Of a stretch of 64,000 nucleotides of DNA, positions 25,994 through 53,285 are shown one piece after another. The stretch lies in the NCBI GenBank assembly GCA_049793155.1, contig JBARBN010000228.1, positions 14,644-78,643 of the forward strand, given 5' to 3'. The translations under genes and the position numbers were made by a program. Below the pieces are notes generated by a model that made no database searches, was not told the origin of the DNA, and saw nothing but the letters and a program-made list of their open reading frames with translations. Position 1 is the stretch's first letter. The number at the start of each line of letters is the position of its first letter. The stretch comes from Nitrospirota bacterium. Its GTDB lineage: Bacteria; Nitrospirota; UBA9217.

Positions 25994-26130
25994 CTGTCGC
26001 TACGCTCCAGTTCCGCTTTTGATCGTCCCCGCTTCCGCAACCTTGTCGATTGACGTATCGCAGGCCGGGAGCAGGAACACGACGGGTACGGCGGTATGCA
26101 GCCACGCACTGATCCGTTTTCTATATTGCA

Positions 26131-26325
26131 TCATGATGAAATTCCTTCTGCCCGCCTTTTTTCGTTTCTTGTCTCTCCCGACATAATGATCGCGGCATCG
26201 TTGATTTCTTCGTACTTTTCCACCCTCCCCAGGCTGCCCTGGCTGAAGTTGATCTTGACATATCCGCTGAATTCCCCTTCCACAAGCATCCTGATCACTT
26301 CGCTGAGACTTTTCATCCTGTCCAT
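26131..26325 (-). CDS. Small conserved protein S1 (64 aa), paralog of the ORF at 32339..32473
   Basis: MDRMKSLSEVIRMLVEGEFSGYVKINFSQGSLGRVEKYEEI... The corresponding 44-aa stretch of S1 (about 55% identical) aligns with MEKIKKMMEVIKALMDKKFTGYIRINFTRGSVERIEKFEEILKK. The shared core is EVI..L....F.GY..INF..GS..R.EK.EEI. It lies between the NusG-like gene and tpsB. Confidence 0.6.
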   Translation of the reverse strand: MDRMKSLSEVIRMLVEGEFSGYVKINFSQGSLGRVEKYEEINDAAIIMSGETRNEKRRAEGISS

Positions 26326-26363: not shown

Positions 26364-26867
26364 TTATGCCGCTTCAACATCGTCAGCGTAAATTTTTACG
26401 CCGACGCTTCTTCCCAGAAGCTCTATGCTGACGAGCAGAATGTGATGATCTTCTTTGCTCGCCAGTATCCCCTCTGCGCCCCTGAATACCCCGTTTTTTA
26501 CCCGCACCCGGGCGCCCTGTTTCAGATGCGGATAGACATCAATGTTTTCCCGGGCATCAAGGAGTATCTTCAGCGCGCGTATCTCTTCGGAAGCCACTGG
26601 TGTCGGATGTCCGGGCTCAAGGGATATGAACGTCACGGCGCCCCGGGTTTTCAAAACTCTTAGAAATTCCTCCGGACCCGGCAACAGGGAAACAAAGAGA
26701 TAGCCGGGGAACAGGGGAACGTCCACACGTTTTTTTCTGTCTTTCCATTGATTCAATTTTGTTACTGAAGGCAGAAAGGTTTCGATGCCCTTGCCTTGCA
26801 GTTCGCCCGAGACCACGAATTCATGTCGTGACTTCACGTGTACCGCATACCAGTTGGCGCTCATCAT
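26364..26867 (-). CDS. NusG-family specialised paralog (UpxY/LoaP/RfaH-like transcription antiterminator)
   Basis: NGN domain WYAVHVKSRHEFVV...FPGYLFV. C-terminal KOW-like GARVRVKNGVFRGAEGILA. Much shorter than housekeeping NusG and placed at the head of a long operon. Start taken at MMSANWYAV; the upstream 53-codon in-frame extension looks non-coding. Confidence 0.7.
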   Translation of the reverse strand: MMSANWYAVHVKSRHEFVVSGELQGKGIETFLPSVTKLNQWKDRKKRVDVPLFPGYLFVSLLPGPEEFLRVLKTRGAVTFISLEPGHPTPVASEEIRALKILLDARENIDVYPHLKQGARVRVKNGVFRGAEGILASKEDHHILLVSIELLGRSVGVKIYADDVEAA

Positions 26868-27035
26868 GGTCTTGCACCTAGGGAATGATTTGAGATTTGT
26901 ACAGACAAAGGGTGATACCGGAACGGACCATGAGGACTCGTTATGGGCTTTCCGGTCGTTGATGCTTTTTGAGCACCAACTCAGCAAAGTACCCGCATAC
27001 TCTTGCGGTGTGCGAAGCGATACCATACTATAGTC

Positions 27036-27089
27036 TTGTTAAAACTTGATGACTGTATTGTTACAATTTGATAAAGAATTTAATAACCG
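27036..27089 (-). promoter_or_regulatory. Direct-repeat array A (5 heptamers at 11-bp spacing) upstream of the NusG-like/tps operon
   Basis: TTGTTAAaac TTGATGActgt aTTGTTACaat TTGATAAagaa TTTAATA. It lies about 180 nt upstream of the NusG-like start. Confidence 0.5.
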
Positions 27090-27203: not shown

Positions 27204-28091
27204 CTAATCTGCCTTCAGTAAGGGCTTTGCATCAATGACCTTTCCCACGGTCACATCGCAAAGCAGCGTCTCACCGCCGAAGGAATTCCCGAAGTCGACG
27301 GTTATGCCCTTGTCGTCTACGTCGGTGATGTGTCCTACCATTTCGCCAGCCCGGACGAGCGCTCCTTTGCGGGCCTCAATGTCCACTTTGTAATCCTGGC
27401 CATCATCTCTGATGCGTCCGGGGCCGAAAGGCGTCTCGATGACGGCGCCTGGCGTCGCGGAAAACCGGATCGTCACTTCCTGGTCTGAAATGGACTCGAC
27501 CCTGCCGGGGAAATCGGGATCATAGGAATATGCTTGTCCCACTTCCGGAGATTGCTTGGCCCTGTACTCATAATCTCCCCTCGGCATTTTCATTTCCTTG
27601 GGCCGGGTGCGGACCCGGGTCAGGTGCGCGATATATTTTGGTGCTTCCTGATCCGGTACATCTTCCGCCTTGATCTCCGCCGTGCGACTATCGCCTTCCT
27701 TCATGCTGACAATGGCAAACGCGAGCTGATGCGAAATTTCCTCTTCCATTGACCGTTGCACGTAAGGCGTCGACTGCACTTGCACGGCATCCGCGGCGCT
27801 GACCGCCTCAATTGAAAGGGGAACAGCCTCATCCTTCTGCAAATAGGCGTTCGACTTTCGTTGGATCTCGGCAACGATGTCCGTTGCAGCCACAACCTCG
27901 CCCGACCGGAGTCGACACAAATAATGGACGGATGCCGTATCGCCGGGCTTTATCTCCTTCGCCTGCGCACGGTCAGTTGTGGGTTCAGGCTGCAAGGTCT
28001 GATGCGTTCCCGGGGTAGCACACCCCGTGATTGCCAGCAGGCAAACGGACACCTGAATAATTGTCTGAATTTCTTTCCCGTTAAACTTCAT
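27204..28091 (-). CDS. FKBP-type peptidyl-prolyl isomerase lipoprotein (two FKBP/SlyD-like segments)
   Basis: Lipobox LLAITGCATP. IKPGDTASVHYLCRLRSGEVVAATD resembles the FKBP GDxVxVHYxGxLxDG motif. The C-terminal GHITDVDDKGITVDFGNSFGGETL is SlyD-like. Confidence 0.5.
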   Translation of the reverse strand: MKFNGKEIQTIIQVSVCLLAITGCATPGTHQTLQPEPTTDRAQAKEIKPGDTASVHYLCRLRSGEVVAATDIVAEIQRKSNAYLQKDEAVPLSIEAVSAADAVQVQSTPYVQRSMEEEISHQLAFAIVSMKEGDSRTAEIKAEDVPDQEAPKYIAHLTRVRTRPKEMKMPRGDYEYRAKQSPEVGQAYSYDPDFPGRVESISDQEVTIRFSATPGAVIETPFGPGRIRDDGQDYKVDIEARKGALVRAGEMVGHITDVDDKGITVDFGNSFGGETLLCDVTVGKVIDAKPLLKAD

Positions 28092-28227: not shown

Positions 28228-28270
28228 CTGTTACACCAATATGACAGTTGAATTAAGATTTGATGATAAC
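28228..28270 (-). promoter_or_regulatory. Direct-repeat array I upstream of the FKBP lipoprotein gene
   Basis: cTGTTACAccaa TATGACAgttg AATTAAGattt GATGATA. Preceded by CTATCAC, as in arrays C and D. Confidence 0.45.
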
Positions 28271-29699: not shown

Positions 29700-30449
29700 T
29701 TAGGCAACTGTCTTCCTACGGAGACCGACGAGACCCATCAGACCCGAGCCGAAGAGGTAGATAGCAGCCGGGATCGGCGTAGCTTGCGCGACCAGTTGCG
29801 TGGAGCCGTCAGCGAAGGTACGAATCGTAGCGATGCTCGTGCCTTGTGCTCCGGAACTCGGATCAGAGCCGTAGTAATAGAGAACCTGGTCAACATAGCT
29901 CGAAGTAGCAAGCGCCCCCAGATTCTTCTCGGCATCGCCCGATGCAAGATAATTGCCCATCGTTCCGATCATGGTTCCGCCGCCATTCATCATGTTCCAG
30001 TAGGAATACGTACCGGTCTGTGCAACCGTTGCATTGTTGCCGACTGCGGCGCCACGGTAAGTATCCAGAGTGCTACCTGCAGCTGGACTGAATGACCCCC
30101 AGAACGCATAGGGGTTGATGTTACCGGCGTTTGCCGGACCGCTGGCATAGGCAGAACCATTGCCGCCATTCGCGGTATTGGACAGGATGAAGTAGGCGAC
30201 ATTGGTATTGGCCAATGTCGCGCCTGACCCTAACTTGCTAAGGCTGAAGGTGTCCGTATTGAAGGCCACATTGGTGGTAAGAGGTGCGCTCGCTGAAAAA
30301 GCACCGAGGTCTGTTGCGTACTCCGTGCCGGCGCCGGTCCCGCTATATACCACGCGGATCAGATCGCCTTCGTCGAAAGCGGCCATTGCCTGACCGGCGA
30401 AACTGACCATGAGCATCATGGCTACAAAAAGCAAAATAATTTTTTTCAT
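29700..30449 (-). CDS. Secreted protein with a VPLPA-type PEP-CTERM exosortase sorting signal
   Basis: Signal peptide MKKIILLFVAMMLMVSFAGQAMA. The C-terminus ...ATPIPAAIYLFGSGLMGLVGLRRKTVA has a P-x-P-A motif, a TM helix and a basic cluster. Confidence 0.65.
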   Translation of the reverse strand: MKKIILLFVAMMLMVSFAGQAMAAFDEGDLIRVVYSGTGAGTEYATDLGAFSASAPLTTNVAFNTDTFSLSKLGSGATLANTNVAYFILSNTANGGNGSAYASGPANAGNINPYAFWGSFSPAAGSTLDTYRGAAVGNNATVAQTGTYSYWNMMNGGGTMIGTMGNYLASGDAEKNLGALATSSYVDQVLYYYGSDPSSGAQGTSIATIRTFADGSTQLVAQATPIPAAIYLFGSGLMGLVGLRRKTVA

Positions 30450-30845
30450 TGTTTTGTTTCCTCCTGAGTTTTTTAAAATCAATCGAAATCGTTCCTACCC
30501 AGCGTTTCGTGCGTGTATATCTGGAGACGCTGCGTATGCTTTTTACCCTCAGGCGACCCGGCCATCCACCTCTGGTGGACCCGCTGGTTTTCCGTCACCC
30601 GGTTGCCCGGGCTTTGGCTTTATTCTGAAGGCCGGATGCTGACTTGCGCAGACATCCTACCGAGTTGTATACATCATCTATGCTGTCTCTATCTCCCCCT
30701 CCTTTCTTTTATGGATGTATTGAGTGGGCCTGTCAATTTGAACTGTAATAAATCATTACGCGGCAGGCTCCCGACCCGGGCTTTCTGTTACCTTATTCAG
30801 GTCAGCTAAGTACCCTGGTACTAAATAAAAGACGATAAATAAAAA

Positions 30846-30892
30846 AAGCCCGAATCCTGATAAGAACTCACTCTTATCCATGATTCGGGCTT
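30846..30892 (-). terminator. Intrinsic terminator (hairpin plus U7) downstream of gene 31056..32228; part of repeat copy 1
   Basis: AAGCCCGAATC-ctgataagaactcactcttatccat-GATTCGGGCTT. In the minus direction it is followed by UUUUUUUAUUUAUCGUCUUUUAUUU. The loop carries its own inverted repeat (gataagaa/cttatc). Confidence 0.6.
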
Positions 30893-30940
30893 TCTGGTGC
30901 GCGACTGAATTCTGTCGGTCAGCAAAGGACCCTGATGATC
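30846..30940 (-). repeat. Leader/terminator repeat element, copy 1 (about 95 nt)
   Basis: Hairpin plus TTTCTGGT(A/G)C plus the CGGTCAGCAAAGGACCCTGA(T/G)GAT box. About 85% identical to copy 2 at 32237..32335. Confidence 0.6.
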
Positions 30941-30994
30941 ACTTGTTCATTTTATGCTTCTTGATCGTTAACGTAGCGAATACTACACGTCGCA

Positions 30995-31035
30995 GGTTAC
31001 ATGGTGATGACAGTTCAATGAAAGTTGTGTGAAGA
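30995..31035 (-). promoter_or_regulatory. Direct-repeat array X1 (TGATGA-type)
   Basis: ACATGGTGATGAcagtTCAATGAaagtTGTGTGAag. About 70% identical to array X2 at 32794. Confidence 0.4.
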
Positions 31036-31055
31036 TTTACGGCTCCGTCCTTCGG

Positions 31056-32228
31056 TTACTGAACAAACGATCGTGCTCTCCTGTCCAGGTCGGCGAGGTA
31101 ATTCGCCGTGAATATATACTCTGAGAGATACATTTTGTTCTTCCTCTGAACCGCCGAAGACCGGCTGTTTATGTATACCTGCAGTGCTTCGATGAAATTA
31201 TTTTCATTGACGACACGGATGAGATCGATCGGCGGGGCAACGACGATCGGATAGTCAAGGATTTCCCCGCCTGCAAGGGTGACCAGCCTCGCGTCCCAGG
31301 TCCCTTCACTCGGGAGGACCGTAATGACGATGTCTTTTTCGCGTGCTTCTTTCGACAACAGCGTGGCGTCGGACAGGGCGATCCCGGTTGAATGCGTTCC
31401 ATCCGACTGTACGTCTATCCGGATCGTGACCGGGGTTTTCCCGTCGGAGATCGCGATCGCAGGCTCCTGCCTGCATCGTTCGCCTTCGTTAGGCCCGAAC
31501 AGAGCGACAAACGAACTCAGGTCCTGCTCCCCCTTGTATTTTTTGAACCGCTGCAGTACGCTTTTTTCCTCACGCGTGAGGAGTGTTATCTTCGCCGCTT
31601 GAACCTGCCTGCCGACATTCCCCGGCGACCGCACCCCTGCTGTCATGGCAACGGGCGCATCAGTTCCCCTTATTCCATCCGGAGCAGCCGCGGAGTTATT
31701 TTTCGGGACTATTACAGTTGGGACCGTATTGTCTGTTCCGTTCCGGGAATTAATATTCTCGAGTCCGACCGTTGGTTCATCCGTTGGTCCGCCTGGCAGC
31801 GTGTTAGCATCAGACTCGGAGGGCCATGCGGTCGTGCTCCTGACACTCGCGGTTACATGATAGATGCCTTTGGTCGCATTCTCCGCCCACGCCTCCTCGA
31901 AATTTACAAAGATCTGGAGAAGAGGATCCGCGACCGGCCGGAAAATGCTGAGGAACAGTGTTCCCGGCACGTTGTCCTTTATCTGCCGCAATTCTCCCCC
32001 GCCGACCGTGATGTAAGGATGCGCCAGCATGGTGGAATCGTAGTCGATCTCTATATCCAGGGCCTGCACGCCGATGACATTTTCTCCTGTCATCACGAAG
32101 CTGCCCTGCCCATTCGGCTGGATGCTCATCGTGACGGCATCGGCAAATGAAAGAGCCGGGCAGATCACTACAAGCAGGAGACCCAGCAAAGGCAAATGTA
32201 GTGTTTTATAGATGATTTGTTTAATCAT
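31056..32228 (-). CDS. Secreted hypothetical protein
   Basis: Start at MIKQIIYKTLHLPLLGLLLVVICPALSFA (signal peptide). No recognisable domain. A structured leader lies immediately upstream. Confidence 0.5.
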   Translation of the reverse strand: MIKQIIYKTLHLPLLGLLLVVICPALSFADAVTMSIQPNGQGSFVMTGENVIGVQALDIEIDYDSTMLAHPYITVGGGELRQIKDNVPGTLFLSIFRPVADPLLQIFVNFEEAWAENATKGIYHVTASVRSTTAWPSESDANTLPGGPTDEPTVGLENINSRNGTDNTVPTVIVPKNNSAAAPDGIRGTDAPVAMTAGVRSPGNVGRQVQAAKITLLTREEKSVLQRFKKYKGEQDLSSFVALFGPNEGERCRQEPAIAISDGKTPVTIRIDVQSDGTHSTGIALSDATLLSKEAREKDIVITVLPSEGTWDARLVTLAGGEILDYPIVVAPPIDLIRVVNENNFIEALQVYINSRSSAVQRKNKMYLSEYIFTANYLADLDRRARSFVQ

Positions 32229-32236
32229 AATAACGC

Positions 32237-32285
32237 AAAAGCCCGAATCGGGATAAGAATATGATCTTATCTCTGATTCGGGCTT
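32237..32285 (-). terminator. Terminator-like hairpin in the 5' leader immediately before the start codon of 31056..32228 (candidate attenuator); part of repeat copy 2
   Basis: AAAGCCCGAATC-gggataagaatatgatcttatctct-GATTCGGGCTTT. In the minus direction it is followed by UUUGCGUUAUU and then the ATG. Confidence 0.5.
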
Positions 32286-32335
32286 TCTGGTACCCTGGCG
32301 ATATAATCCGCCGGTCAGCAAAGGACCCTGAGGAT
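32237..32335 (-). repeat. Leader/terminator repeat element, copy 2 (about 95 nt)
   Basis: Same modules as copy 1. A partial third copy (box plus a different hairpin) lies at 44441..44514. A box-only match TCAGCAAAGTACCC lies at 26977..26990. Confidence 0.6.
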
Positions 32336-32338
32336 ATG

Positions 32339-32473
32339 CTACTTTTTTAGAATTTCTTCAAATTTCTCGATCCGCTCGACGCTTCCGCGGGTGAAATTGA
32401 TCCTGATGTATCCTGTGAATTTTTTGTCCATAAGAGCTTTAATTACTTCCATCATTTTTTTTATTTTTTCCAT
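32339..32473 (-). CDS. Small conserved protein S2 (44 aa), paralog of 26131..26325; absent from the ORF track because it is under 60 aa
   Basis: Hand translation of the reverse complement: ATG GAA AAA ATA AAA AAA ATG ATG GAA GTA ATT AAA GCT CTT ATG GAC AAA AAA TTC ACA GGA TAC ATC AGG ATC AAT TTC ACC CGC GGA AGC GTC GAG CGG ATC GAG AAA TTT GAA GAA ATT CTA AAA AAG TAG. Confidence 0.55.
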   Translation of the reverse strand: MEKIKKMMEVIKALMDKKFTGYIRINFTRGSVERIEKFEEILKK

Positions 32474-32556
32474 CGATCTCTGCTCTTTTCGTGGACATGC
32501 CTGATGTAGCTGAATGCTTTAGTTCCGGCTGTAGGGAACAATTTATAACATACAAT

Positions 32557-32600
32557 TGTTACATTTTGATGACCATTTAATTAAAGTTCCGTGAAATGAT
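32557..32600 (-). promoter_or_regulatory. Direct-repeat array B upstream of small protein S2
   Basis: aaTTGTTACAttt TGATGACcatt TAATTAAagtt CCGTGAAA. It lies about 85 nt upstream of the S2 start. A TATAAA/TATGTT -10-like element lies beyond it in the minus direction. Confidence 0.45.
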
Positions 32601-32793
32601 CATTGGCAATTGCATTTTTCATATTCGAGTGACCAACAGCGCATTTCCTTAATATTCTGTTCATAAGTGCGATAATATTTTGATATCCTTGTTACTCTTT
32701 CCTTTGACCGCATAGGTACGATACTGTTCATTCCATCTGATATTTTCCCTGGCGCTCTTAACTAATGACTCATCTTTTACCACATATATATTT

Positions 32794-32832
32794 CATGGTG
32801 ATGAACGTTCGATGAAAGTTCAGTTAATTTAT
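32794..32832 (-). promoter_or_regulatory. Direct-repeat array X2 (TGATGA-type)
   Basis: CATGGTGATGAacgtTCGATGAaagtTCAGTTAATTTATC. Confidence 0.4.
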
Positions 32833-32853
32833 CGCAGATACATTTATCACTCC

Positions 32854-34692
32854 TTACGAAAAATGCTTTCTGCCGCGGAATAACACAAGACACAAGACAG
32901 CCGCTAAGAATGCAAAACCAGCCGGGGAAACTGCTGGCACCGGTGTGGCGGTCTGAATTGCGGCAAAGGTTGCCTCGACAGTGTGCGCGGAGGTGACAGC
33001 GGCAATAGTATAGGTGAATGTTCCAACCGGATATTCAACTGCCGATACTGATGAGCCGTTATCCTTGAGAGCGACGAGTGTATACCCTGTCAACGGCTTG
33101 ATGGTAAAGAAGGCGCTGCTTCCATAATTGGCAGTCGGGCTGCTGGGCGTATTGGAGCCGCCCAGGGAGTTGGTGACCGTACCCACAAGGGTATAGCTGG
33201 TAATCACGGCGCCGCAGTTTGCCGTACTCCCTCCGTTCTGTCCAGTGCAGGTCCAGTACCATGGACCGGTTCCGGTAACTGTTGACGGGGTGCCGGCGGA
33301 ACAAAGGCCGGTTGTGGGTGCTGTGGTATAGGTCTGGCCGTTCGCGCTGCCGCACAGGCCGTTGATCGGGGGCGGCAGCCCCAGACTGGCTGCGAGATTA
33401 AGACGGGGTTTGACGATCGAATTGCGCGGATCGGTTATGGGAACCCCGTTCGTCGTCATGCGCGCTGTAGTCTGGTCAAGCGAGTCTGTAGGGAAAGCAG
33501 CCCTGAGTATGGCCACCGCGCCTGCCACGTGGGGTGATGCCTGCGATGTCCCTCCCATGGTAATGTTGGCCGCGGTGATCAATGCCCCCGGCGCCACCAT
33601 GGTCAGAAACGAGGCGCTGTTCGAGAAGCAGGTGACCTGATCTGCCGTTGTCGTAAAATCGGTGCAGATACCCCAGTTCAGTCCTCCTACATTGCTGTCA
33701 TAAACCGCGCCCACAGACACGACTCCCGGCGTGCAGGCAGGGCTTGCAATGCCGTTCGTATAGGCATCGTTGCCGGATGCCGCCACCGGGAGGATGCCTG
33801 CCGATCGAGTGTTATTGAGCGGCGTGACAAAAGGGTTGGTATGACTGTTGCTGCATGGGGCGGCATAGTTGACATCGTCACCCAGGCTCATATTCAGGGC
33901 GACGATATTGTATGCGCTTTTATTGGTAATGGTCCAATTGATTCCGGCAAGGACCCAGTTGGTGTTCGAGGACCCGTTGGAAAATACGTTGATCGCAGCG
34001 ATTCGGGCGCCCGGAGCAACTCCGGCCACGATCCCGGCAACATTAGTGCCGTGATTGTTCGGATCGGTATTCAGCGTAAGGTTATTGCCGGTCACATCCA
34101 CAGAGGCGGCAACTTTACAATCTGAAGGAACTCCCGGCGCAGAGCATGAACCGAAAGCTGCGAGGGTATAGTTGATCCCGGTGTCGATGACCGCCACCCC
34201 CGAGCCGCTCCCGGTAAAGCCGGCCTGAATTGCCTGAGGCTGATTGATGAGGGGCAGACTTTGGGTTAATGAAGGATAGATAGGACGATTTTCATAGACC
34301 GCCACGACCTCGGGCCGCGTCAGGAAACGTTCGAGGGCCGGACGACTTTTGAATCGAATAAAGGACATGGGGAGATGGCTATAGTCCTGAACAAGCTCGG
34401 CTTCGCCGGGCAACATCACTGCCTCGGCCCGCTGCTTGATCTCCCGGTAGCGGTCCGCCCTGAAAGAAAGGATGGCATCATCATCGTGCGGTAGATGAGC
34501 ACGGTCCCTTCGGGCTGTTGCCTCTGTTTCAACATCGCGATCATCATAAAGAACGATCACGTCCTGCGGGACACCAGCCGCCAGACTGTCCAGCACACCC
34601 TGGGGAAGGGCCGGCGCGGCGATTGCGGTCAGCGACGCGGTGCAGCAGATCGTTGCGATGGCGTATATAACGAGACGTCTGAGGATACACAA
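32854..34692 (-). CDS. Subtilisin-like serine protease (peptidase S8) with a C-terminal PEP-CTERM-like sorting signal
   Basis: Catalytic triad contexts VAVIDTGI (Asp), NNHGTNVAGIVAG (His) and GTSQASPHVAGAVAIL (Ser). Signal peptide. The C-terminus ...ATPVPAVSPAGFAFLAAVLCLVLFRGRKHFS carries the sorting tail. Confidence 0.8.
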   Translation of the reverse strand: MCILRRLVIYAIATICCTASLTAIAAPALPQGVLDSLAAGVPQDVIVLYDDRDVETEATARRDRAHLPHDDDAILSFRADRYREIKQRAEAVMLPGEAELVQDYSHLPMSFIRFKSRPALERFLTRPEVVAVYENRPIYPSLTQSLPLINQPQAIQAGFTGSGSGVAVIDTGINYTLAAFGSCSAPGVPSDCKVAASVDVTGNNLTLNTDPNNHGTNVAGIVAGVAPGARIAAINVFSNGSSNTNWVLAGINWTITNKSAYNIVALNMSLGDDVNYAAPCSNSHTNPFVTPLNNTRSAGILPVAASGNDAYTNGIASPACTPGVVSVGAVYDSNVGGLNWGICTDFTTTADQVTCFSNSASFLTMVAPGALITAANITMGGTSQASPHVAGAVAILRAAFPTDSLDQTTARMTTNGVPITDPRNSIVKPRLNLAASLGLPPPINGLCGSANGQTYTTAPTTGLCSAGTPSTVTGTGPWYWTCTGQNGGSTANCGAVITSYTLVGTVTNSLGGSNTPSSPTANYGSSAFFTIKPLTGYTLVALKDNGSSVSAVEYPVGTFTYTIAAVTSAHTVEATFAAIQTATPVPAVSPAGFAFLAAVLCLVLFRGRKHFS

Positions 34693-35351: not shown

Positions 35352-35395
35352 ATTGTTACAAGGTTATGAAGGACAGGTTAATTTATAATTAATTT
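35352..35395 (-). promoter_or_regulatory. Direct-repeat array C upstream of 34902..35216
   Basis: gaTTGTTACAagg TTATGAAGgac aGGTTAATTtat aATTAATTT. Almost identical in architecture to array D. Confidence 0.5.
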
Positions 35396-35412: not shown

Positions 35413-36456
35413 CTAAATATTTTCCGGAGCATTGATAACTGCTTTTCGCCGATAGCGGATCATGTAAATCAACAGCAGTAGAGGGAAGAGGTATTGCCCG
35501 ACTGCGATGAGGGTCAGGTCCATTGTTCTGGCGGATGTGTAATTAAAGTACGCCAGCAAAACATTGTCAATCCGGTGAAAAAGATGGATGACAAAAAGGA
35601 GCCCCAACCCCGCGGCGAGCCCCTTGATTTTCATTGCCCACGGTACTGAGCTAACAGCAAGGACCAGCGACGTAAAGATGACAATGCTGAAGGTTTCATA
35701 GTAGACGGTGGTTTCCTGCGCGAGGCCTACATGGTGATCGAAGAGAGAAAAACCCAGGACCATAAACCAATCCAGGAACCGGATATACCCGTGATGGACC
35801 TTCATCCATACAAGAAATAGACCGCTGGATATCAGCACAAAGCGTACAAAAAACCACGCTGCTTTCATGGGCATGCCCTTGTTCGACTCTTCCCGGTCGA
35901 TCCATTTCAGCCACAGGATGCAGGCCAGCAGGACAAATAACATAGTGAATACCTGGCCCAAATACACATGAAAAACCTCAAAGAGCCCCCGGTCATACCG
36001 ACTTACCATGAAGGTGAGTGCCAGCCGGAACAGGTTGCCCATATAGAGTAAGGGGATTCCCATTGCAAGACCGGTTGTCTTCTGTCGCGCCGTAGCGGGA
36101 TGAAAGATAACGAAGCTCAGGAAAAGGCCCGTTGTGAAGAGCGGAGTGCACTCGGGGATGATCTGGAACGCCAATGCGCCTTCCGATACCGTGTCGTTGA
36201 CAGTCGATGCGGGAATGCCGAAAGCATTCAGGACCAGGACCAGGGTCGCCGCAACGTGTTCGTTTATCGGCTTTGTGAAAGACGGCGGCAATGCGTTAAT
36301 GATCGCATAGATCGCAATGCAGGAAAGGGCGAACGCAGCGGCAAAGCGAAAACTACGCGACCGGATCATATTCGATATTAAAGATCCGAGAGAATCGCCT
36401 TTTTTTTCGGCGGCCTTCTGTTTCTCATGTCGATGCTTTGATTTCTGTTTTGCCAT
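35413..36456 (-). CDS. Exosortase (EpsH/Xrt family transpeptidase)
   Basis: About 8 TM helices. A conserved Cys sits in IIPECTPLFTTGLFLSF (exosortase E-C-[ST]-G/P-like motif) and Arg residues in FRLALTFMVSRYDR. It shares the window with five proteins carrying matching C-terminal sorting tails. Its start is 3 nt from the upstream stop. Confidence 0.6.
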   Translation of the reverse strand: MAKQKSKHRHEKQKAAEKKGDSLGSLISNMIRSRSFRFAAAFALSCIAIYAIINALPPSFTKPINEHVAATLVLVLNAFGIPASTVNDTVSEGALAFQIIPECTPLFTTGLFLSFVIFHPATARQKTTGLAMGIPLLYMGNLFRLALTFMVSRYDRGLFEVFHVYLGQVFTMLFVLLACILWLKWIDREESNKGMPMKAAWFFVRFVLISSGLFLVWMKVHHGYIRFLDWFMVLGFSLFDHHVGLAQETTVYYETFSIVIFTSLVLAVSSVPWAMKIKGLAAGLGLLFVIHLFHRIDNVLLAYFNYTSARTMDLTLIAVGQYLFPLLLLIYMIRYRRKAVINAPENI

Positions 36457-43683: not shown

Positions 43684-44376
43684 TTAGCTCTGTTTTCTTC
43701 TCATTTCTATCAACCCCGCGAGGCCTGAACCGAAAAGCCATACTGCGGCCGGAATCGGGGTGGCAACAGGGTTTGGATCAGGTGTGCCGGCGATAAAGAT
43801 GGTATTGCCGCCGGCATCAGTGGTACGAATGGCCGCAGTGGTAGTGCTCGGATTGGCGGTCATCCTGGGATAGAGGCTGAAGTTTGCCGTTGTTCCATAG
43901 CCGACGAGATCAACGAGGTTGGCGGACGTTGCAACGGTGCTTGCGCCGGTTGCAGTCGTATCGAACAATGCCAGCTTACCCGCGGTAGCGGACAAGTTGA
44001 GACCAGCGAAAGTACCCAGGGTCAGATCATAAGCCGGGTCGGGTGCCGTGCCGACGAGGCCCGTTCCCCGTCCTTCTTGAATGAGAAAATAGCTGTTTGG
44101 ATTGATGATACCGGACAGGTTGTGCGAGTTCGATGGGCCAAAAGTCGTTGTATTGGTAGCACTTGCATACTGGAGGCTGTAGCCGCTCAGATCGATCGCA
44201 GAAGTCCCGTCATTGTACAACTGGACCCAATCGTTGCTATACAGAGGATTAGTACTCGTTGCGCCGCCTCCCCCGTAGATCTGGCTGATGACAAGATCCG
44301 CATGGGCGGACTGGGGCGCTGCCATCAGCATTACCGTGAACATAACTGCTGTCAGTGTTAGCATTACCCTTTTCAT
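43684..44376 (-). CDS. Secreted protein with a VPLPA-type PEP-CTERM sorting signal
   Basis: Signal peptide MKRVMLTLTAVMFTVMLMAAPQSAHA. C-terminus ...VATPIPAAVWLFGSGLAGLIEMRRKQS. Confidence 0.65.
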   Translation of the reverse strand: MKRVMLTLTAVMFTVMLMAAPQSAHADLVISQIYGGGGATSTNPLYSNDWVQLYNDGTSAIDLSGYSLQYASATNTTTFGPSNSHNLSGIINPNSYFLIQEGRGTGLVGTAPDPAYDLTLGTFAGLNLSATAGKLALFDTTATGASTVATSANLVDLVGYGTTANFSLYPRMTANPSTTTAAIRTTDAGGNTIFIAGTPDPNPVATPIPAAVWLFGSGLAGLIEMRRKQS

Positions 44377-44440: not shown

Positions 44441-44481
44441 AAACCCGGAGAAGAACCTCAACAGGTTCGTTTTCCGGGTTT
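44441..44481 (-). terminator. Terminator-like hairpin in the leader of the VPLPA-CTERM gene 43684..44376
   Basis: AAACCCGGAGAA-gaacctcaacaggttcg-TTTTCCGGGTTT. In the minus direction it is followed by UUUUUUAUUUUGCC. It sits between array E and the ATG, just after the conserved box GGGCCCTTTGCTGACC. Confidence 0.5.
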
Positions 44482-44552
44482 TCTGTTTCCTTTATAAGGT
44501 CAGCAAAGGGCCCATGTCTGATTACGAATTCTTGCGTATTAAATCATATTTT

Positions 44553-53041: not shown

Positions 53042-53073
53042 AAAGCCCGCCACGAATGAATTCGCAGCGGGCT
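53042..53073 (-). terminator. Terminator-like hairpin plus U8 in the leader immediately before the pentapeptide-repeat gene start
   Basis: AAGCCCGC-cacgaatgaattcgca-GCGGGCTT. In the minus direction it is followed by UUUUUUUU, then about 18 nt, then the ATG. Confidence 0.45.
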
Positions 53074-53285
53074 TTAAGGTACCCCTGATAGAGGGGCCTA
53101 AAAAGTACCCAATGATTAAATGACAGCCACTTGCTGAATGGGCGAGTGTTACTTCTGATCACCCATCGTGATAAGGTAAAAAAATCAAGTCTCACACAAA
53201 ACCACAAAGTAAAGAAACTTCGTTAATCAAGAGATTATCTTTGTGATCACTATTCGAATCATTTTTTAACACATAATTATTACAA

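Follow-up and report, generated by a model that had tools for sequence, protein, structure and literature searches.

A 44-codon open reading frame on the minus strand of a Nitrospirota genome raises two questions: is so short a frame a gene, and if so, what does its product do just upstream of genes for secreted and cell-surface proteins? We call the frame S2, and we call its paralog S1. The whole stretch of DNA that we analyzed, which we call the window, comprises 64,000 nucleotides of contig JBARBN010000228.1. We discuss the gene and its protein family first, then the RNA element that follows it, the genes around it, and its possible role.

The S2 gene and the S family

The two family members in the window are:

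32339..32473, minus strand: S2, 44 codons plus a TAG stop, with an ATG start (translation, homologs, purifying selection, AlphaFold2, GenBank)
26131..26325, minus strand: S1, a 64-amino-acid paralog of S2 with the S domain and a variable tail, directly downstream of a UpxY-type NusG paralog (tblastn, homologs)

Re-translating the minus strand from 32473 down to 32339 gave a clean frame from ATG to TAG, as the first-pass annotation had described. The product, MEKIKKMMEVIKALMDKKFTGYIRINFTRGSVERIEKFEEILKK, has 44 residues, a mass of 5.4 kDa, and a pI of 9.8. A search of 5.8 billion proteins returned 31 close homologs (64-98% identity); nearly all of these have 44-54 amino acids and the C-terminus ...VEKFEEILKK. 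Within the window, tblastn identified S1 as the sole paralog of S2 (49% identity over 41 residues, E = 7.5e-13), which agrees with the relationship proposed in the first-pass annotation. Using S1 as the query, we found a second group of homologs that have the same core and variable tails. A profile built from both groups (A1) matched 290 of 1.84 billion cluster representatives at E <= 1e-3, and 161 cluster representatives at E <= 1e-10. The first-pass annotation had named two things that would count against the gene, a frame broken by a sequencing error and a lack of conserved homologs. We found neither: the frame is intact, and there are 31 close proteins and 290 cluster representatives.

Codon statistics from 96 non-identical copies of S-family genes, taken from related loci, show that substitutions cluster at third codon positions. 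The entropy is 0.72, 0.55, and 1.40 for codon positions 1, 2, and 3, so that the third position has twice the entropy of the others. Mean pS is 0.77 and mean pN is 0.25, and the median dN/dS of moderately diverged pairs is 0.24. Given the short frame, the weak ribosome-binding site, and the leader-rich region, one might suspect a chance ORF or a non-coding stretch whose conservation reflects RNA or DNA elements instead of a protein. But the excess of third-position entropy and of pS over pN across the 96 genes refutes this. Also, the 290 cluster representatives conserve both length and C-terminus, and independent gene callers call S2. We give this explanation practically no weight. The sequence just 5' of S2 (MSTKRAE...) is in frame in the relatives P0001-P0004 and out of frame in the window. 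Because this stretch is in frame in only some relatives, the 44-codon form is the conserved unit, which fixes the start of the 44-residue protein.

S2 is a genuine conserved small-protein-coding gene, and its existence is already on record. GenBank contains an identical protein from a Nitrospirota MAG, MGC1456608.1 ("hypothetical protein WA946_15595 [Nitrospirota bacterium]"), and S1 (P0032) is identical to WA946_15565 in GenBank; the spacing of the two locus tags agrees with the gene order in the window. S2 is also called as a 44-amino-acid gene in a Logan assembly of the same organism (L217 1603-1737). The first-pass annotation was therefore mistaken in describing S2 as unannotated. Its broader remark, that small genes are routinely missed, is fair given another MAG (GCA_016212985.1), in which an S2-type ORF (L015 663-800) has no gene call, though it does not apply to S2 in this genome, which is listed in GenBank. 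What is new is the definition of the S family, its two architectures, and its coupling to a previously undescribed leader RNA.

As judged from these searches, the S family comprises about 290 sequence clusters, is uncharacterised, and falls into two subtypes. S2-type proteins, which we defined by a tail of at most 14 residues, end in ...KFEEILKK. In S1-type proteins the tail is variable, and some of these proteins are anchored in the membrane or fused to other domains. The conserved residues of S2 include FTGY...EKFEE. An AlphaFold2 model of S2, from an alignment of the family, has a pLDDT of 88.8, with a helix at residues 2-15 and strands at 21-28 and 31-39. S2 is the free-standing form of this small domain, and it is predicted to be a cytoplasmic protein whose 44 residues form an amphipathic helix and then a beta-hairpin. 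S2 is probably oligomeric and may form a dimer via the hairpin. S2-type proteins are basic (mean net charge of +3), and the best-conserved surface motif, E-K-x-E-E, is acidic.

S1-type domains are sometimes fused in frame to a hydrophobic or lipobox segment and an FKBP-like periplasmic domain (P0085, P0096, L134 6306-7367, and L208 1527-2627). These fusion proteins have 353-360 amino acids. Several other S1-type tails end in a hydrophobic segment. The fusions imply that the S domain can serve as the N-terminal, cytoplasmic part of a membrane protein. A cytoplasmic domain followed by a membrane segment and a periplasmic domain is the architecture typical of the cytoplasmic output domains of transmembrane regulators; as an N-terminal module, the S domain fits a role in transmembrane signalling or an export-related role alike. 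The fusions are also Rosetta-stone evidence that S1 and the FKBP-like lipoprotein would work jointly.

A 44-codon ORF on the minus strand of the window (25999-26133; MMQYRKRISAWLHTAVPVVFLLPACDTS...) overlaps the stop of S1 and contains a lipobox-like hydrophobic segment; it has a counterpart at L217 7942-8076. In other loci, this position is occupied by a gene of about 290 codons for the FKBP-like lipoprotein. The ORF may be a remnant of the signal peptide of the FKBP-like gene, left behind after the gene moved to 27204-28091.

S2, S1, and the rest of the family had no significant match in Pfam, NCBIfam, or PDB (for the family profile against PDB, none at E <= 10). In particular, no Pfam match to UpxZ was found in S2, S1, or members of the S family. 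The sequence pattern of S2 is one that we take to be like that of DUF2292/YezD (PF10055), which prompted a comparison of profiles. S2 alone had no match to PF10055 at E <= 10, and among 41 S-family members there was a single match, which was below threshold (E = 0.017). Aligning the S-family profile (A2) to a DUF2292 profile (A3; 36 aligned proteins from 240 PF10055 proteins retrieved) with hhalign gave a probability of 0.12% (E = 0.47), although the whole domain aligned in the expected register despite this non-significant score. The two domains are of similar size, and their helix-strand-strand topology and spacing are identical in the predicted models (for DUF2292, H11-26, E30-38, and E41-50, with a pLDDT of 64, which is lower confidence than for S2). 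In both, a short linker ends in an aromatic residue and then Gly, there are two strands of about 9 residues with a Gly at the turn, and the end is E-[KR]-x-E. But the signature residues of DUF2292 and of the S family differ (FTGYIKINFSQGSIGRVEKFEE against YGSVEIVVHDGRVVQIERREK). We kept DUF2292/YezD as a resemblance only, with the same topology and no significant profile match. As modeled, S2 and DUF2292 appear to share a fold design; membership is not demonstrated, and homology lacks statistical support. Since DUF2292 is uncharacterised in the literature, the resemblance yields no function for S2.

We also rejected other candidates. The resemblance of a segment of S2 to the Sm1 motif of Hfq (ALMDKKFTGYIRINFTRGSVERIEKFEEI) had an hhalign probability of 0.2%, and S2 does not have the combination of Sm1 and Sm2 motifs and five-stranded fold that defines Hfq/Sm-like proteins. 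When we looked by eye for c-di-GMP binding motifs like those of PilZ or MshEN, the spacing in S2 was unsuited. Our search of the literature on DUF2292/YezD, on PEP-CTERM with NusG, and on XrtH found nothing about the S family or the leader RNA motif.

A candidate antiterminator/terminator switch downstream of S2

The stop codon of S2 ends at 32339, and a repeat (D3, 32307-32335) begins 3 nt later, just as the first-pass annotation had placed a conserved leader box 3 nt from the stop. The leader RNA features in the window are:

32278..32330, minus strand: core of the leader RNA motif after S2 (covariance model, 50.2 bits, E = 2.8e-11)
32237..32287, minus strand: intrinsic terminator hairpin (RNAfold minimum-energy and centroid structures)
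30885..30934, minus strand: motif copy plus terminator (48.9 bits; repeats D2 and D3), between the gene for a 390-amino-acid protein and a PEP-CTERM gene
30776..30817, minus strand: motif copy, short-P2 variant (54.1 bits), in tandem with the copy at 30885..30934
26943..26996, minus strand: motif copy, long-P2 variant (42 bits, E = 4.8e-9), in the leader of the UpxY-like/S1/TPS operon
44474..44515, minus strand: motif copy plus terminator (covariance model), before a VPLPA-CTERM gene at 43684-44376 (TIGR03370 match)
53067..53112, minus strand: weak motif copy (covariance model)

We built the covariance model from 32 instances of the motif. Its six copies in the window are all on the gene strand, and there are 117 copies in 89 sources across related loci. 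On unrelated contigs, the consensus found 3' of S2 homologs is GGGU(a/c)CUU(u)GCUGA, a variable hairpin, (a)ACCAGAAAGCCCG, and a long hairpin ending in GGGCUUUUUU. The first helix (P1) pairs GGG..CUU..CUG with CAG.AAG.CCC and encloses the variable hairpin (P2); in the S2 leader, GGGUcCUUuGCUG pairs with CAGAAAGCCC. We read this predicted P1-P2 core after S2 as an antiterminator.

In P2, all 5 of 5 pairs show compensatory changes. For P1, the pairing is 98.4%, and a few of the changes are compensatory or wobble; because the P1 sequences are nearly invariant, the covariation support for P1 is thin. All of the pairing measures exceed those of 500/500 shuffles and of all slid controls, with the caveat that the alignment (A5) was fitted to the model.

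The 5' arm of the terminator, AAAGCCCGAAUC, overlaps the 3' strand of P1. The terminator hairpin is followed by UUUUGCGUU and then by the start of the gene for a 390-amino-acid secreted protein (31056-32228). The 116-nt leader folds at -43.5 kcal/mol (z = -4.6), and the terminator at 32237-32287 dominates the equilibrium fold. (Unlike thermodynamic folding, a simple terminator scan did not flag this hairpin.) The same arrangement holds in 81 of 99 distinct motif instances: a strong hairpin with a U-tract after it uses as its 5' arm the AAAGCCC that also belongs to the 3' strand of P1. The median energy of these terminator hairpins is -24.9 kcal/mol. When the motif core is isolated, it folds into P1 in 82 of 92 cases (median of -15.5 kcal/mol). 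Since P1 and the terminator compete for AAAGCCC and are mutually exclusive, we conclude that the element is an antiterminator/terminator switch. Under this folding model, only the transcripts that keep P1 would read through into the genes for XrtH exosortase substrates and a two-partner secretion system. More generally, copies of the motif precede genes for PEP-CTERM or VPLPA-CTERM proteins.

Rfam 15 had no match to the motif at the gathering score over the whole window. Over 30400-32900, the only matches with E <= 10 were to a c-di-GMP riboswitch and, spuriously, to miRNA hairpins. We propose that the motif is a candidate class of cis-regulatory RNAs that is absent from Rfam. We also scanned genomes (596 Gb) for the box GGGTNCTTTGCTGACC, which has 15 specified bases, and set the result aside: chance matches were dominant, and just 3 of the 120 loci returned carry an S-family gene (L038, L048, and L134).

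Gene neighborhoods of S2 and of the switch

In addition to S2, S1, and the leader motifs, the window contains these regulatory features:

26364..26855, minus strand: UpxY-family NusG paralog (NF033644, 125.8 bits with a cutoff of 100; Pfam NusG at residues 58-152)
30549..30628, minus strand: c-di-GMP-I riboswitch aptamer (RF01051, 53.9 bits with a gathering score of 35)
32544..32600, minus strand: promoter-like box upstream of S2 (repeat families D1 and D4)

The switch is linked to S2-type genes in particular. Across related loci we counted 78 distinct S2-type genes; a motif copy follows within 600 nt of 60 of them, and another four lie at contig ends. For S1-type genes, a motif copy follows in 2 of 21. 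The distance between the stop of S2-type genes and the switch ranges from 3 to over 300 nt. The median distance to the GGG of P1 is 16 nt, with 32/60 genes under 20 nt and 28/60 at 20-600 nt. In the window, the motif as defined by its structure starts 8 nt after the stop of S2 (at 32330), and the GGG of P1 is at 32328. S2 is the first cistron of its transcription unit, and the structural genes come after the switch. Some motif copies, including 5/6 of those in the window, have no S2 gene upstream.

Two loci (L157 1094-1826 and L159 3479-4378) have two or three S-family genes in tandem, in which each S2-type copy has its own motif and the last S-family copy runs into a ShlB gene. These tandems show that the S2 gene and the switch duplicate as a module. 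Other arrangements were seen as well. On a 1.9-Mb contig (L011 7815-8234), a type II secretion operon (GspC, PagL, GspD, E, F, G) opens with a tandem pair of one S2-type and one S1-type gene, and we recognised no leader motif there; the S family thus also occurs outside the PEP-CTERM/TPS cassette that we describe next. In L189, L191, and L199, genes for an S8 peptidase and an exosortase, the neighbors that S2 also has in the window, are beside divergent S2-type genes without the motif.

Mapping the proteins of the window onto about 60 loci gave the order of a cassette that is conserved in about 45 loci: S2, the motif or motifs, a PEP-CTERM-type protein of 260 amino acids, a PBP-like protein of 419 amino acids, S1, the FKBP-like lipoprotein, a ShlB-type transporter, and a giant TpsA. 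The window has a variant of this cassette, with the FKBP-like gene relocated upstream (27204-28091) and the UpxY-family NusG paralog directly before S1. A UpxY-like gene adjoins S1 in just two of the loci that we examined, the window and L196. The mechanical ORF for the UpxY-like protein (26364-27026, minus strand) is matched by family models from residue 58-59 onward, so the true start is probably near 26855, and the 5' end of the ORF probably includes about 57 codons too many. The motif copy at 26943-26996 lies inside this apparent N-terminal extension.

The c-di-GMP-I riboswitch is directly upstream of the PEP-CTERM gene at 29700-30482, and it shares the leader with two motif copies, so that this leader is a tandem of three elements. 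Just upstream of S2 are genes for a subtilase of 612 amino acids with a C-terminal tail that resembles a sorting signal (32854-34692, minus strand) and for an XrtH exosortase (35413-36456, minus strand; TIGR04177, 90 bits).

The promoter-like box, about 70-130 nt before S2, consists of TTTCAC...GGTCATCA and an inverted repeat, TGTAACA-N6-TGTTATA, that overlaps an extended -10 element (TGnTATAAA) about 71-90 nt before the ATG. We read the box at 32544-32600 as a putative promoter on the basis of these motifs; a simple sigma-70 scan did not call it. Copies of the box (TTTCAy...TCATCA...TGTAACA-N6-TGTTAyA) are at 27057-27086, 28231-28267, 30997-31033, 32555-32595, 32791-32827, and 35352-35381, and the box is found upstream of S2, the UpxY-like gene, the FKBP-like gene, the PEP-CTERM leader, and a DUF5076 gene. 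Its recurrence before several transcription units suggests that the whole region is under the control of a single transcription factor or sigma factor. In other loci, similar boxes are found 85-165 nt upstream of S2-type genes, and the strict inverted repeat is present in 21 of 75.

Possible roles of S2

S2 probably helps to regulate genes for cell-surface proteins, to judge from where its gene lies. Our preferred reading is that S2 is a trans-acting component of a circuit that controls transcription elongation at the leader switch, to which we assign a probability of about 40%. S2 is encoded upstream of the gate, so it would be made whether the gate is open or closed. It would most likely bind the nearly invariant P1 and its bulge in the leader RNA, or else a paused complex of RNA polymerase and the UpxY-type NusG, and this binding would decide between antiterminator and terminator. 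S1, which is encoded after the UpxY-like gene and is sometimes membrane-tethered, would be a partner or antagonist. Because S2 is upstream of the gate, is evolutionarily tied to it, is basic and putatively oligomeric, and has a paralog beside a UpxY-type gene, a trans-acting role seems the most likely. The proximity of the UpxY-like gene to S1, the c-di-GMP-I riboswitch, the presence of the cassette in about 45 loci, and the membrane fusions of S1-type proteins are also consistent with it. Still, it is gene order that would place S2 in this circuit, and gene order only. The acidic E-K-x-E-E surface of the modeled domain would be untypical for RNA binding, the motif also occurs without an upstream S2, a UpxY-like gene is beside S1 in only two of the loci examined, and the S1-lipoprotein fusions would fit a role in secretion just as well.

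The circuit would have parallels in known systems. In Bacillus subtilis, the hut operon (hutP-terminator-hutHUIG) is a regulator-first antitermination operon; HutP has 148 amino acids, is hexameric, and has a known RNA motif and ligand. As in the hut operon, the candidate regulator S2 is encoded first, the structural genes come after a terminator that has an alternative structure, and the regulator would be made whether or not the structural genes are. But S2 has just 44 amino acids and is unrelated to HutP in sequence, and its RNA binding is putative. In the leader-peptide attenuators of trp, his, and pheA, the stop of a short ORF is beside mutually exclusive terminator and antiterminator hairpins. 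S2 is likewise a short ORF with its stop beside such hairpins. Unlike those leader peptides, it is strongly conserved and predicted to be folded, it has no runs of regulatory codons, and it lies anywhere from 3 to over 300 nt from the switch, depending on the locus. Given the purifying selection over the whole ORF and this variable distance, S2 does not fit the pattern of an attenuator leader peptide. Another parallel is the control of capsule operons in Bacteroides by UpxY and UpxZ (PMC11685472). There, as in the window, a locus-specific UpxY-family NusG paralog heads an operon for a surface structure, the gene for a small modulator (here S1) comes next, and leaders combine a conserved element with a hairpin in the nascent RNA (PMC11685472). 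However, S1 and S2 have no Pfam match to UpxZ, S2 is not beside the UpxY-like gene, and S1 has no adjacent UpxY gene in most related loci (the exceptions being the window and L196). Also, the conserved element here is paired with an explicit terminator/antiterminator alternative. The logic of S2 and its switch thus appears to resemble both regulator-first antitermination and UpxY/UpxZ, while S2 itself seems, by sequence comparison, to lie outside of UpxZ, DUF2292, Hfq, and other catalogued families.

Could the S domain instead assist export, with no regulatory function? It might be a cytoplasmic chaperone, a targeting factor, or a domain that precedes a signal peptide, serving the neighboring lipoprotein, PEP-CTERM, or TpsA proteins, so that its position at the switch is incidental. 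This would account for S1-type domains whose translation is coupled to that of the FKBP-like lipoprotein gene, or which are fused in frame ahead of its signal or lipobox segment (P0085, P0096, L134, and L208), for the hydrophobic segments at the ends of several S1-type tails, and for family genes beside type II secretion genes. But the strong terminator between S2-type genes and the secreted-protein genes implies that the two are not expressed stoichiometrically, and this would be unusual for a dedicated chaperone. Furthermore, the downstream proteins carry ordinary Sec signal peptides, and the fusions are found in S1-type proteins only. We consider an export accessory unlikely. A different view is that the act of translating S2, and not its product, matters in cis. 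A ribosome at the S2 stop would cover the 5' strand of P1, so that the antiterminator would not form and the terminator would win; with slow translation or none, transcription would continue past the terminator, as it does in trp-type attenuation. The 5' strand of P1 does begin 3-16 nt after the stop in about half of the loci (median of 16 nt; 32/60 under 20 nt), and in the window the motif is only 8 nt after it. The duplication of S2 and the motif together as a module also fits, as do the Shine-Dalgarno sequences of S2-type genes, which by inspection are weak compared to those of S1-type genes. But in the other 28/60 loci the spacing is 20-600 nt, which is beyond the footprint of a ribosome. 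All 44 residues are under purifying selection and the fold is confidently predicted, and leader peptides are not so conserved. The same domain is also found in S1-type proteins with no downstream switch and at the N-terminus of larger proteins. The translated-leader explanation therefore strikes us as rather improbable.

S2 might also act at initiation, as a small DNA- or RNA polymerase-binding transcription factor that recognizes the promoter box (TGTAACA-N6-TGTTAYA) and has no effect on termination. The box is shared by S2 and other operons of the locus and is upstream of many S2-type genes elsewhere, and S2 is basic and may dimerise through its hairpin. But the predicted fold of S2 is not among the known DNA-binding folds, only 21/75 of the regions upstream of S2-type genes have the strict inverted repeat, and the tie of S2 in particular to the RNA switch would be left unexplained. 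We think that such a role is very unlikely. Finally, a more specific and more speculative form of the trans-acting reading is that S-domain proteins bind, as ligands, to antiterminator RNAs of a new class, in a partner-switching circuit in which S1 opposes or sequesters S2. Free S2 would lock P1 of the GGGUaCUUuGCUG...CAGAAAGCCC leader and so turn on the genes for exosortase substrates and two-partner secretion. S1, which is often membrane-anchored or fused to the FKBP-like domain, would sequester or oppose S2 according to the status of the envelope or of secretion. Surface-protein export would thereby be coupled to transcription elongation, layered with the UpxY-type NusG paralog and c-di-GMP. 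We regard this detailed scheme as doubtful.

Proteins of fewer than 50 residues are under-studied, and the family that S2 defines, with its roughly 290 clusters, has no entry in Pfam or NCBIfam. The weight of the finding is mostly in the module of S2 plus the switch, and not in the ORF itself. The switch RNA gates genes for PEP-CTERM proteins (exosortase XrtH) and for giant two-partner-secretion adhesins, and the module is found in Nitrospirota, Syntrophales-like bacteria, and Geobacteraceae from anoxic soils and peat. Even if S2 does not read the switch, the small gene and the RNA motif form a clean, testable module, as a 135-nt gene and a 100-nt leader could be moved into a reporter. If S2 does read the switch, then it would represent a new minimal antitermination system, and it would provide a handle on how surface layers are controlled in uncultured organisms.
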